A stretch of 31,825 nt of DNA from Macrostomum lignano (Eukaryota). Below, piece after piece: positions 18,523-26,444 of the stretch. The stretch's first letter is position 1. The number at the start of each line of letters is the position of its first letter. The stretch lies in contig NIVC01004909.1 in the NCBI GenBank assembly GCA_002269645.1, positions 1 to 31,825 on the forward strand, in the 5' to 3' direction. The notes below the pieces were generated by a model. It had not been told where the DNA came from, searched no databases, and was given only the letters and a program-made list of their open reading frames with translations. The position numbers were made by a program, and so were the translations under genes.

Positions 18523-19287
18523 ATGGACATCGGCGAAGGATATAAACTCCAAATACAGGAGTATGAAGGAGTTATGTTCATTGCTATCAGAAAATTTTAC
18601 CGACATGGCAGCACTGCGAGTTTGAAACCTGGAGTCCCCGGCTTCAATTTGAACATCCGTCAGTGGGAGAAGCTCAAGGAGTTGAAGCGATCGCTTGTCA
18701 AGGCGGCCTTGGACAAACAGCCAAAGGTTGTCAAACTCGGCTTCGATAAGTTCATCGAAGTGAAAAACGGCATTATCTGGTTAAAGCGATTGCCGGAGGA
18801 CTGCTGCGACGAGTTTCTTAAGCGGAACACCGTGCCGCTGACACCGCCGCTGTGGCGAAAGCTGTGGCAGTACGCGGATTGGATCGACGAGCAGCTATCG
18901 GCTCCACGTGAGATTTCCGATGCATACGAGCTGGAGTCGGGATCTTCCTCCGACAGCATCGAAAATGAAGACGATGCTGGCGAAAACGCGGAAGAGACCA
19001 AGCCGGTAGTGAAGGCGGAGGACGATGCTGCTGCTGCTGCTGGCGAGGCTGGCATGCCATCCAATCTGCAAATCGACACAGCGTTTGCCACTTCAACGCC
19101 TCTGCAACTGACCAAGCCTGCAGCTGGAGCGATTCCTCGGCAGGACACTGATCTGCAAGAGGACCCAGTCTGGTACCAGTTCCGAGCTCAAGCAGCCGCC
19201 GCTGAGAACGCCAGGAAACGCAAGCAGCCGCCATTCGCTCTGCGCAGATTGGATGCCATGAAGCTGCCCAGGCCGTGCTTCGACTGA
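18523..19287 (+). CDS. PC4/Sub1-like ssDNA-binding transcriptional coactivator; two tandem PC4-type domains plus an acidic/Ala-rich tail
   Basis: DIGEGYKLQIQEYEGVMFIAIRKFY...LKPGVPGFNLNIRQWEKL matches the PC4 consensus (IR.FY...KPG..G.L...QW). A second degenerate repeat ends VPLTPPLWRKL. The ORF is intact. Confidence 0.85.
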   Translation: MDIGEGYKLQIQEYEGVMFIAIRKFYRHGSTASLKPGVPGFNLNIRQWEKLKELKRSLVKAALDKQPKVVKLGFDKFIEVKNGIIWLKRLPEDCCDEFLKRNTVPLTPPLWRKLWQYADWIDEQLSAPREISDAYELESGSSSDSIENEDDAGENAEETKPVVKAEDDAAAAAGEAGMPSNLQIDTAFATSTPLQLTKPAAGAIPRQDTDLQEDPVWYQFRAQAAAAENARKRKQPPFALRRLDAMKLPRPCFD

Positions 19288-19455
19288 TTGCAGACCCTCT
19301 GACATTGAGACAAACTCTGTGCTACGAGCTATTTATCCAGACCTGCTTTCCATCTCTTTGTTTGAAAAAAATATATATGCTTGCTTTCACATGCGCTATG
19401 CATTTTCAATGTCTTAAGAAAACCTAAAAATAAAAATGTTTCTTTGTTTCCGAAA

Positions 19456-20523
19456 ATGGAAAAAATTTATTTCAATCCAAACCAGCCAGCGAGCTATTGC
19501 AGTTCTTCAAAACTGCAACCTGAACTGCGAAAAAGAGGCGAGCATATTGGAGTCAAGAGCATTGAGCAGTGGCTAAGTCAGCAGCCAGTACACACTCTGC
19601 ATAAGCCAGCTAGAGTACGATTTCCAAGGGCGCCAATAATAGTAAGAGCCATTGATGATCAGTGGGAGATGGATCTGGTGGAAATGATTCCATTTGCAAA
19701 GTATAATCGCGGGCATAAATACATTCTCACCTGCATTGATGTTTTGTCTAAATTTGCAATGGCCAGAGCACTGAAGTCTAAGAGCGCGGCAGAAGTGAAA
19801 TCTGCGTTTGAGAGCATGCTGAAGAGCTCAAAGCGGCAGCCGCGCACTGTCCGCACAGATCAGGGAAAGGAGTTTGTCAACGCAATTTTTCGCCAGTTCT
19901 GCATAGACCGGGGGATTCTGGCGTTTCCAACTAGCAGTGAGCACAAAGCAGCCATAATTGAAAGATGGAATCGAACTTTAAAAAGCAAGATGTGGCGTTA
20001 CTTTACTCACAACAGCACTCTACAATGGCTTGATGTGCTGCCTAAACTGGTCAAGTCCTATAACAATACTTTCCACAGAAGCATCAAGACTACACCAATG
20101 AATGTCAGCAAAGCAAACGAGACTGAAGTGTGGATGAACCTTTATGATGGGAAAGCGATTGAGACAGTTGAGAAACTGAGAAAACCGAAGTTCTGTGAAA
20201 ACCAATCAGTGCGGATTTCCAATGCACCCAGACTCTTCAGGAAGGGATACAAGGCGAACTGGAGCGAAGAGGTGTACACCATAGTGTCTAGGGCACCAAA
20301 GCATTATCCCTACATGTACAGGATTCGAGACATGAAGGGGGAAGACATAAGAGGCCTCTTCCACGAGCATGAGCTGCAAGCTGTTCCGGACTCGCAGCGG
20401 CTGTATGTAATCGAGAAGGTTCTGAAGACTGAGAAGCGGAAGGGTAAGATCCGATATCTCGTCAAGTGGGCCGGCTACAAGTCCACTGACTGGGTGGATG
20501 AGAAGGACTTAAGAAAAGTGTAA
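19456..20523 (+). CDS. Polinton retroviral-type (rve) DDE integrase with C-terminal chromodomain
   Basis: Catalytic motifs WEMDLV, RTDQGKEF and IERWNRTLK; chromodomain YVIEKVL...YLVKWAGY...WVDEKDL. Intact; probable start is the ATG at 19456. Confidence 0.95.
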   Translation: MEKIYFNPNQPASYCSSSKLQPELRKRGEHIGVKSIEQWLSQQPVHTLHKPARVRFPRAPIIVRAIDDQWEMDLVEMIPFAKYNRGHKYILTCIDVLSKFAMARALKSKSAAEVKSAFESMLKSSKRQPRTVRTDQGKEFVNAIFRQFCIDRGILAFPTSSEHKAAIIERWNRTLKSKMWRYFTHNSTLQWLDVLPKLVKSYNNTFHRSIKTTPMNVSKANETEVWMNLYDGKAIETVEKLRKPKFCENQSVRISNAPRLFRKGYKANWSEEVYTIVSRAPKHYPYMYRIRDMKGEDIRGLFHEHELQAVPDSQRLYVIEKVLKTEKRKGKIRYLVKWAGYKSTDWVDEKDLRKV

Positions 20524-20553
20524 GATACCGACATTGTGCAGCCATTCCCAACT

Positions 20554-21363
20554 ATGAGAAGCATCATCATTTGTAGCGAAAATGCTGAAGGTACTCCTAG
20601 TGACTTTCATTTTCACCTGCCTTCATCTATTTACTTGGATCGAAATGTGGACTATGAGGCAGGTCTGGCTGAAATCCATCTGCCTGCTGCATGGTTCAAT
20701 GTTGACGAGCCTTACTGCTTCACTGTCTCAGATGGAAGAGAGCATGAGGCCCTGGTTCTTCAACCCGGACGCTTTGCTAGAGTGGAGGAACTGGTGGAAC
20801 GCCTGAATGAGCTGCTGGCCAACTCTGAGTCACTGTTCTTCGATGCAATGAGCGAAAGGGAGTCTGAAATGGAAGCTGATGAGTCCGGTTTAATGGGGCG
20901 GAGCAGCGCTAGAGATATTGGCATAAAGTTTGAAATCCAAGAGTTGAGAACAGTAGTGCTCAACAACACGGCTCGAGCAGAATTGTTCCTTCCATCAAGT
21001 AAAATTCTGCAGTGGCTGGGATTCGGAAACCAGCCTGTGAAGATCCCACCCGGACGGCAAGTGTCACTCTGCTGCATCGGTTGTCCGTCCACCAACCTGA
21101 TCAACTTGCACTGCAGCATTGTGGAGCGAACAAACTGGAACTGGAACTCCGTGCTGCGAACTGTGAGCATGTCATCCGATGTCGAATGGGGCAGCTACAT
21201 GAGCAAAGTGTTTAAGAAAGCAATTTTCTTCCCGATTCAGAAAGCTAATTTTCTACATGGCATTAGATTTCAACTGCGTGACATCTTTGGCTACTCACTG
21301 ACTGCTCGGAGCAGCAGCCCTGTTCTGCTCACAGTTCATATTCGGGAAAGGCTAATACAATGA
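20554..21363 (+). CDS. Polinton minor capsid (penton-like) protein
   Basis: N-terminal signature SENAEGTPSDFHFHLPSSIYLDRNVDYEAGLAEIHLPAAWFN; C-terminal CSIVE...VLRTV...FFPI...GIRFQLRDIFG...LTVHIR. Intact. Confidence 0.8.
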   Translation: MRSIIICSENAEGTPSDFHFHLPSSIYLDRNVDYEAGLAEIHLPAAWFNVDEPYCFTVSDGREHEALVLQPGRFARVEELVERLNELLANSESLFFDAMSERESEMEADESGLMGRSSARDIGIKFEIQELRTVVLNNTARAELFLPSSKILQWLGFGNQPVKIPPGRQVSLCCIGCPSTNLINLHCSIVERTNWNWNSVLRTVSMSSDVEWGSYMSKVFKKAIFFPIQKANFLHGIRFQLRDIFGYSLTARSSSPVLLTVHIRERLIQ

Positions 21364-25297: not shown

Positions 25298-25370
25298 GCA
25301 GGAAAAAAACTATTTAAGAAGGGGAACTGAGTCGGCTTCCCGACATCTTGCGTCTTGAAACCATCCGATC

Positions 25371-25813
25371 ATGAACTATATTGACTTCCAAGGCTTCCCA
25401 CGCGAGAGATCGAGCAGAGATTTCGTTGTGAAGGAGCTGGCCATTGCCCAAGTCCGGGCTGGCAGTTACCATATCACTCATCACGTGTACGCCTCTCCGT
25501 TCTCATGGGAGAGAATCTCACCTGAGATGCAAGTGCATTACAGAAAGCTCTCAAAGAATTTGCATCATTTCAAGTGGACAGATGGATCTCGACCGTACAT
25601 GCATTTGGCAATGACATTCTAAACATTGCTTACGGTCCCACCTGGACAAGCGGGGTGAAAAGTCCATCTTTCTGACTGAGCTGCTTGGCAGACAGGTGTA
25701 CAACCTAGAGGATCTGGGATCACCTTTGATTCAAGCATCTGATACTGGTTGCGCAGTGAAAAATGTATTACTGTACTACAACTGGCTGAAACCGAAGTTC
25801 TGTATCAACTTAA
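25371..25813 (+). CDS. Polinton-associated protein with DEDD/DnaQ-exonuclease-like N-terminus; frameshifted
   Basis: IDFQGF...FVVKELA...PFSW...HHFKWTDGSRPY, then after two one-base deletions KRGEKSIFL...VYNLEDLGSP...CAVKNVLLYYNW. The fold assignment is tentative and the end coordinate is inferred. Confidence 0.5.
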
Positions 25814-25882
25814 GAAGCGAGGTGTGCCCGCACCACTCAAAAGCTCGCAAAGACAGTACCACAGGCAGAAAGGACTCTCTAA

Positions 25883-26444
25883 ATGAGTACACCTGCGACA
25901 GCCCTGCGAGTGACCAATCTGGTCGGCGGCGTGGATCTGAGACTTGCTGGAGGCAGGGGTGCCCATTGCCTCTGCGGGAACTGGCTCTCAGCATGGCTCA
26001 TGTCATCTATCGTCCCGTCTGGCCCCGAGTGCTTATCAAGAGGATGCGGAATCCCAGAGTGACTCTATTGCTCTATCCGACTGGACAACTGAGTATCTGT
26101 GGCGCCCGGAGCTACTCGGCCTCAGTCAGGGCCGCTCGTCGCTTCGTGGCTATGCTGCATCGCAGAGTGCCTGCTCAACTGCTGCCTCATCAAGCTGTGC
26201 ATGTGCGGATTAAAACTATTACTGCTCATGGGAAATTGACTTGTGCAGAGCACTTCCCCTCGCTAATCTTGTAAACACTTTACCAAGTGCTCAATATGAG
26301 CCAGAATCATTTTCTGCTTTGATCTGCAAACTAAGCTTCTGCAAATGCCTGCTTTTTCACAATGGCTCATTTGTTCTCAGTGGTGCAAAAACAATGAGCA
26401 TGCTAATTTCCGACTTTTCCTTGCTTGTCCGTTTTCTGTGCTAA
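25883..26444 (+). CDS. TATA-binding-protein (TBP)-like protein with both direct repeats; two frameshifts as assembled
   Basis: Repeat 1: LRVTNLVGGVDL...LRELA...YRPVWPRVLIKRMRNPRVTLLLYPTGQLSICGARS...RAARRF. Repeat 2: IKTITAHGKL...LPLANL...YEPESFSALICKL...CLLFHNGSFVLSGAKT. Single-base deletions near 25960 and 26245. Confidence 0.88.

Follow-up and report, generated by a model that had tools for sequence, protein, structure and literature searches.

Polintons (Mavericks) and adintoviruses share terminal inverted repeats (TIRs), a 6-bp target duplication, a protein-primed DNA polymerase (pPolB), a retroviral-type (rve) integrase, a C5 protease, and an ATPase (Starrett et al., PMC8502044). These elements lack an RNA polymerase, and the Polinton literature examined does not discuss how they control when their virion genes are expressed; according to it, particles of animal Polintons are unseen or rare. 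Viral TATA-binding proteins (TBPs) have been described in other systems. In the beta- and gammaherpesviruses, which have no RNA polymerase of their own, the pre-initiation complex of the virus (vPIC) includes a TBP mimic, such as ORF24 of KSHV (Kaposi's sarcoma-associated herpesvirus), that uses the RNA polymerase II (Pol II) of the host at late genes with TATA-variant promoters; ORF24 also has an N-terminal domain binding the C-terminal domain (CTD) of Pol II, and acts with five further viral proteins (PMC7498053). Nucleocytoviruses encode two-lobe TBPs that have lost the two glutamates constituting the TFIIB signature, and that pair with a TFIIB of their own (Ravarani et al., PMC7221094). 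Here, we analyze a 31,825-nucleotide stretch (contig NIVC01004909.1, hereafter the window) from the 764-Mb assembly of Macrostomum lignano. From position ~18240 to the contig end, it holds most of one Polinton, spanning 12.7 kb, which encodes both a TBP-like and a PC4-like protein.

The analysis confirms that the Polinton TBP gene is real and long-conserved under purifying selection, and it identifies a candidate promoter box, with the core TAAGAA, shared by most central genes of the element. The model we lean toward, and think a little likelier than otherwise, is that these boxes are bound by the element TBP, which brings in host TFIIB and Pol II and so serves as a late-gene switch, with the PC4-like protein acting as the single-stranded DNA-binding (SSB) helper of the polymerase. 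By analogy, the herpesvirus TBP is the closest working model, although the element protein, which is not itself a vPIC member, is a bare 187-aa core without a CTD-binding domain or the five partner proteins, encoded in a 12–17-kb element. The candidate box is the new component; the viral-TBP late-gene model is known from herpesviruses.

The left TIR, which starts with AGT, is the only end of the element in the window; the right arm and right TIR are absent because the contig stops in a 15-bp tandem array. Both ends, with 6-bp duplications, were observed in the sister copies C106, C114, and C754. Pfam identifies the protein-primed polymerase, the rve integrase, and, above its cut-off, the C5 protease, and the ATPase is recognized by a Walker A motif together with a weak Pox_A32 match. 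As the sequence-only reading of this locus had proposed, the plus-strand gene block opens with the PC4-like gene, at 18523, and closes with the TBP-like gene, at 26444. The genome also holds a second, distant Polinton lineage (lineage 2; L073–L086 and L048), in which the order is TIR-polB-integrase-...-TBP and the PC4-like gene lies inverted at the opposite TIR; the window copy belongs to lineage 1. The putative capsid ORFs (open reading frames) of the window element, candidates for the double and single jelly-roll capsid proteins of Polintons, are conserved and fit in size and place, and neither they nor the lineage-2 homologue of the putative major capsid protein have a Pfam or PDB sequence match.

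In the window copy, the TBP-like gene is spread over three frames by one break at about 25960 and another at about 26240, the second being common to two other copies, and its listed ORF is a 93-aa piece only (Pfam TBP, E 6e-9). Further genes of the window copy are also broken, which fits long-read errors or decay. Among 30 fetched loci, the window included, 23 carry an unbroken TBP ORF of 187–188 aa and 7 are broken; the unbroken copy P0001 was used for all tests on the protein. It contains two Pfam TBP repeats (PF00352, 76 bits), and its predicted fold (pLDDT 94.9) is a two-lobe saddle, with the TBP core at residues 9–186 and a TM of ~0.8 to solved TBPs, so that the two-repeat TBP homologue first read from the sequence is borne out. 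With cellular TBP and TRF2 it shares this fold and the YEPExF stirrup, but it differs from them in lacking an N-terminal extension and in its DNA-facing residues. Its folds match nucleocytovirus TBPs in BFVD, at 7–20% identity, which is below its identity to cellular TBP.

Besides host TBP and TRF2, the genome has well over 100 TBP-like places, a lower bound; the surrounding genes were inspected for part of these places. Host TBP (C70, C713, C1301) and TRF2 (C350, C3090, C3513) each occur at three places with identical scores, and the element copy counts may therefore be inflated by duplication. Five of the TBPs (P0004–P0006, P0011, and P0021) lie on contigs of only 1–3 kb. The matches of a profile search seeded with host TBP were almost all cellular TBPs, and no relatives of the element TBP were found in IMG/VR, JGI metagenome contigs, or GenBank phages. 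None of the recorded holders of the sequence is registered as RNA. In contigs from four runs guessed to be RNA, 26–30 of 30 bins are covered and splice joints are not evident; such contigs do not show strand, starts, or level.

The age of the gene is apparent from its phylogeny. The element TBP is 27% identical to host TBP, and the TBPs of the two Polinton lineages, themselves only ~35–39% identical, form one branch (SH-like support 92) separate from host TBP and TRF2, which five database proteins join (FastTree, 131 rows, matches of 165–300 aa only). All 12 lineage-1 pairs in one pairwise set (reference L004) have a dN/dS of 0.16–0.29. Across 45 lineage-1 copies, variants found in at least three copies have a dN/dS of 0.27 (0.12 for lobe 1), compared with 0.92 for singletons, which is the contrast expected from selection on active elements followed by neutral decay after insertion. 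A recent, neutrally evolving capture of a host gene, named beforehand as one outcome that would undo the proposal, is rejected by the sister copies, the purifying selection, the deep branch, and the distance from host TBP and TRF2; the presence of a sister TBP in the distant second lineage means that no recent capture took place.

Lobe 1 of the gene also lies under a second frame. In sister copies, the nuclease-like ORF is 281 aa long (L004:1010-1855), and its tail extends, in a different frame, across all of TBP lobe 1. The overlapping frame (window 25883-26215) is free of stops in all 34 lineage-1 copies without gaps and in 22 of 23 lineage-2 copies; the chance of this from codon redraws is 0.009–0.03 per sequence (four tested). 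The copies are related by descent and thus amount to about two independent observations.

Seven TBPs of the element clade were aligned with host TBP and TRF2 to compare functional residues. The TFIIB-contact glutamates E140 and E142, in the EPE of the C-lobe, are invariant in all seven, and the C-lobe phenylalanines F144 and F159 and the N-lobe asparagine (N12) are kept. At position L5.1 of the N-lobe, however, phenylalanine is replaced by tyrosine (Tyr65) in 7/7, a change that alters TATA binding (PMC7221094). None of 15 genome matches to PF00382 places a TFIIB on the window's contig, although a very divergent TFIIB would escape such a search. Because the glutamates are kept, no TFIIB match lies on the contig, and L5.1 is tyrosine, the element TBP looks suited to using host TFIIB on an altered box, in contrast to the nucleocytovirus TBPs. 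A complex prediction of the element TBP with 173 aa of the last exon of host TFIIB, made without DNA, scored 0.01, which speaks neither for nor against an interaction.

The altered box itself is suggested by a comparison of upstream regions. The plus strand of the element, over its 12.7 kb, contains seven TTAAGAA sites, where ~1.2 are expected, and in two other subfamilies there are nine on the plus and none on the minus strand. In the window and in C754, a TAAGAA core precedes 8 of the 10 central genes by 37–147 nt, namely those for the integrase, putative minor capsid protein, basic protein, putative major capsid protein, ATPase, a small protein, the nuclease-like protein, and TBP. In a subfamily of 72% identity, seven of nine TAAGAA hexamers are kept exactly, versus 16–21% of other hexamers. 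Lineage 2 has seven plus-strand and no minus-strand occurrences of [ACT][AT]TAAGA, five of them located 25–125 nt upstream of a start, and with this widened pattern a box-like motif precedes five of the seven starts tested. The PC4-like and polB genes have canonical TATA boxes in place of the TAAGAA box. Before the PC4-like gene, the TATA box stands at the same place in all seven other copies shown, at least six of which also have an upstream G/C-rich box, and the lineage-2 TBP gene lies behind a canonical TATAAAA. We regard the TAAGAA box as a TATA variant kept across subfamilies and as the candidate cognate promoter of the element TBP.

In TBP, it is the N-lobe that makes contact with the 3′ part of the TATA box. 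Of the two lobes of the element TBP, the N-lobe is the more conserved and also the more altered, and the invariant part of the TAAGAA box is its 3′ half, from which we infer a link between the two. The model would then run as follows. Canonical TATA boxes close to the termini would be read first, by host TFIID, yielding polB and the PC4-like protein; these two would carry out replication of the linear genome. The element TBP would then accumulate and settle on the TAAGAA boxes, to which host TBP likely binds poorly, and from there, with host TFIIB, Pol II would transcribe the genes for the integrase and for the putative capsid, packaging, and nuclease-like proteins. A more specific version, which we put forward tentatively and rate as somewhat short of an even chance, has the N-lobe retuned to the invariant AAGAA half of a private TATA variant and the C-lobe docking host TFIIB, giving some animal Polintons a virus-style early-to-late program with a single captured factor.

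The PC4-like gene is a single ORF of which only part is recognizable by sequence: Pfam PC4 scores 26.8 bits against a cut-off of 25, repeat 1 is 38% identical to host PC4, and repeat 2 is degenerate and invisible to Pfam. AlphaFold nevertheless predicts two beta4-alpha repeats (residues 1–126), which together have the PC4 ssDNA-binding fold, followed by a disordered acidic tail; the protein also has a basic C-terminal motif. Thus, of the tandem PC4-like proteins originally proposed, the tandem repeats hold up, but they lie in one 254-aa chain and not in several proteins. The domain matches Pur-alpha I–II with Z 10.5 and rmsd 3.9 (117 aligned) and human PC4 with Z 6.4 and rmsd 1.2 (64 aligned), with MRP and Whirly as further fold matches, and so resembles the group reviewed in PMC7549692 by sequence in repeat 1 and by fold throughout. 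It differs from PC4/Sub1 in being a single chain rather than a homodimer, in its degenerate second repeat, in its C-terminal acidic tail, and in starting its fold at residue 2 with no N-terminal regulatory region. Its conservation is strong (dN 0.10–0.37, with dS at least 1.4 or saturated, in 15 pairs). The top viral fold match is a protein labeled MOSUB from a Branchiostoma adintovirus (E 7.6e-6), with an insect adintovirus second and weak; given these deposited labels, the gene had already been annotated in the group, although the word MOSUB is absent from the accessible text of PMC8502044.

Strand-displacing, protein-primed replication requires an SSB. A replication SSB, which the sequence-only reading had named as an alternative, is the likelier and simplest reading of the PC4-like protein, because it resembles MOSUB proteins, swaps apart from TBP, and in lineage 2 has a promoter in common with polB; the protein might also act secondarily as a coactivator. 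The gene is part of a left arm that recombines, and its exchange is independent of that of TBP lobe 1. In lineage 2, the gene has exchanged places with polB and lies at the opposite end, facing TBP, so that one TATA box carried in the TIRs stands before polB on one side of the element and before the PC4-like gene on the other; in C110, an identical TATA box lies inside both TIRs.

The joint arrangement had been taken to suggest a single initiation module made up of PC4 and TBP, in which the PC4-like protein would be a Pol II coactivator that joins the element TBP within the pre-initiation complex. We consider this quite unlikely. The two genes do co-occur in both lineages (in 11 of 18 ten-kb stretches around TBP and in 7/7 further lineage-2 elements), repeat 1 is clearly derived from PC4, PC4 is a cofactor of replication as well as of transcription (PMC7549692), and a PC4-like protein made early could serve late promoters too. 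The free swapping of the PC4 arm relative to TBP lobe 1 and the lineage-2 promoter shared with polB argue against a module, as do the MOSUB-labeled PC4-fold genes in insect and lancelet adintoviruses and the replicative role of the phage T5 homologue (PMC7549692). The chain is, moreover, devoid of the basic N-terminal region that host PC4 has. In PC4, this serine- and lysine-rich region is needed for coactivation. The transcription-initiation reading survives in its TBP half, through selection, age, and the candidate box, and finds no support in its joint half.

Several observations weigh against the late-switch model. Trp/Pro or His stands in the alignment where the other intercalating phenylalanine of the N-lobe would be, and the asparagine of the C-lobe is a threonine (Thr112), so that the four intercalating phenylalanines and two central asparagines of the TBP family are not all present. 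Reading of a canonical TATA box by the element TBP is doubtful because these N-lobe Phe and C-lobe Asn positions are changed, and the changes may have made DNA binding weaker instead of retargeting it. The protease gene and one small gene have no box, and TTAAGAA is mildly enriched in the whole window (12 versus 5.1 expected, reached by 2 of 100 shuffles). The pattern [ACT][AT]TAAGA was picked after viewing both lineages, so that its lineage-2 P of ~3e-4 is not a clean hold-out. The TBP tree has long branches and FastTree support alone, nine other lineage-1 pairs range in dN/dS from 0.10 to 0.58, some at 0.39–0.58, and selection in lineage 2 is weak (0.40–0.86 in six close pairs; 0.48 for shared variants in 28 copies). 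Finally, the box is near TATA, reading TATAAGAA in some copies, and could perhaps be read by host TBP, and the lineage-1 TBP gene itself lies behind a box and would require a bootstrap. The last two points, and the occurrence of boxes reading TATAAAA, would also suit an arrangement in which host TBP/TFIID reads the boxes and the element TBP is a decoy or competitor that takes TFIIB, NC2, or Mot1, or dampens host genes; kept TFIIB glutamates combined with several changed DNA-facing residues are what such a protein might show. We nevertheless judge it unlikely. Most boxes (CTTAAGAA, TTTAAGAA, CATAAGAA) lack the TATA 5′ half and keep AAGAA, whereas polB and the PC4-like gene have canonical TATA boxes, and neither the Asn and Tyr that are invariant in the N-lobe nor the phenylalanines of the C-lobe would be needed by a pure decoy. 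Reuse of the TBP fold outside transcription, for example, at the origin, in packaging, or in chromatin, with the box read by another factor or acting as an RNA-processing signal, appears very unlikely. The variable box-to-start distances (33–147 nt) would agree with it, and another reader is conceivable, for example, the late polymerase of a helper virus: TAAG is the baculovirus late motif, and giant-virus-dependent Polinton-like viruses exist in the literature. The TFIIB-contact glutamates are, however, invariant, and literature searches found no helper virus of Macrostomum lignano.

A named factor and a named box make the timing of Polinton expression testable in a laboratory animal. If the late-switch model is true, the viral-TBP late-gene strategy extends from herpesviruses and giant viruses to integrating elements of 12–17 kb, and the element TBP would be a natural TBP with shifted DNA specificity that retains the use of host TFIIB. 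In the more specific version with a retuned N-lobe, it would also constitute the smallest known viral late-transcription switch, compared with the six-protein complex of herpesviruses and the TBP–TFIIB pairs of giant viruses. We found no literature on the function of a Polinton TBP or PC4, though a prior description is possible in subscription papers, Repbase, figures, and supplements, which lay outside the search. In the accessible portions of Starrett et al. (PMC8502044; preprint 10.1101/697771), TBP occurs as a figure-legend label only, without analysis of selection, promoters, or mechanism. Term look-ups for TBP, TATA, or PC4, with terms differing per paper, returned nothing in the accessible text of PMC11071308, PMC10748475, PMC11131425, 10.64898/2026.10.13.758929, and 10.64898/2026.06.19.733378, and that of PMC10675990 mentions TATA-binding proteins for mirusvirus-like elements only.

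Table 1. Features of the Polinton in the window, in order of position.
Feature	Position	Strand	Basis or remark
Left TIR, starts AGTAGTAG	18240..18373	+	Matching repeat at each end of C3078 and C106 (sister copies)
Canonical TATA box TATATAAG, likely host-read early promoter	18438..18445	+	85 nt before PC4-like gene
PC4-like protein, 254 aa, likely SSB	18523..19287	+	Pfam PC4, predicted fold
TTAAGAA box before integrase	19414..19420	+	Upstream-region comparison
Retroviral-type integrase with chromodomain	19456..20523	+	Pfam rve E 2.5e-16; Chromo below cut-off
TTAAGAA box before 269-aa gene	20509..20515	+	Upstream-region comparison
269-aa gene, putative minor capsid	20554..21363	+	Label from size and place; no database matches
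TTAAGAA box, 147 nt before basic-protein gene	21212..21218	+	Upstream-region comparison
Lys/Arg-rich protein, putative genome-condensing core protein	21360..21770	+	Inferred label
CTAAGAA box, ~100 nt before putative major capsid gene	21670..21676	+	Upstream-region comparison
Putative major capsid gene, frame-broken in window copy	21773..23053	+	Inferred label
Adenovirus-type cysteine protease, without upstream box	23077..23595	+	Pfam Peptidase_C5 above cut-off
TTAAGAA box before ATPase	23572..23578	+	Upstream-region comparison
P-loop ATPase, putative packaging ATPase	23629..24348	+	Walker A; Pox_A32 E 0.024 in one sister copy
TTAAGAA box before small gene starting at 24329	24278..24284	+	Upstream-region comparison
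Two conserved genes, function unassigned	24329-24646, 24639-~25298	+	Second frame-broken in window copy
TTAAGAA box before nuclease-like gene; TATAAGAA in other subfamilies	25314..25320	+	
Putative nuclease-like gene, frame-broken in window copy	25371..26215	+	Maelstrom-like by a weak lead (score 0.88)
TTAAGAA box, 72 nt before TBP start	25810..25816	+	Upstream-region comparison
TBP-like gene, two lobes, two frame breaks in window copy	25883..26444	+	Pfam, fold, sister copies
pPolB DNA polymerase gene	27160..30916	-	Pfam DNA_pol_B_2 E 4.5e-17
TATA-like box, 40 nt before polB start	30952..30958	-	Upstream-region comparison

The elements are mosaic (L034–L050). Their center, from the putative minor capsid gene to TBP lobe 1, is mostly 92–100% identical among copies, whereas in the same copies the left arm (PC4, integrase) or the right arm (TBP lobe 2, polB) is 40–80% identical. 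The switch points lie around window positions 26190–26220 and 20500, and the right-hand one coincides with the TBP lobe boundary where the center is shared. In sister copies (L054:7857-8768, minus strand; C114 and C754), the right arm encodes a protein of 303–444 aa with an N-terminal Cys/His cluster, an acidic Pro/Ala-rich tail, and no Pfam match, which is a candidate early transactivator.

Outside the element, the window contains a host gene with a MACPF/perforin domain (7164-10987; Pfam E 3.9e-14), split over several ORFs and with Cys-rich C-terminal pieces. Reverse-transcriptase element fragments with a SAP domain (12737-14068, minus strand) are flanked by partial copies of the Polinton 269-aa gene (~12310-12552 and 14165-14547). 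Tandem arrays with units of 37, 57, and 15 bp occupy 2212-4150, 11158-11472, and 30975-31825, respectively; the 15-bp array lies inside the Polinton, adjoins the polB promoter, and is common to the sister copy C3078.

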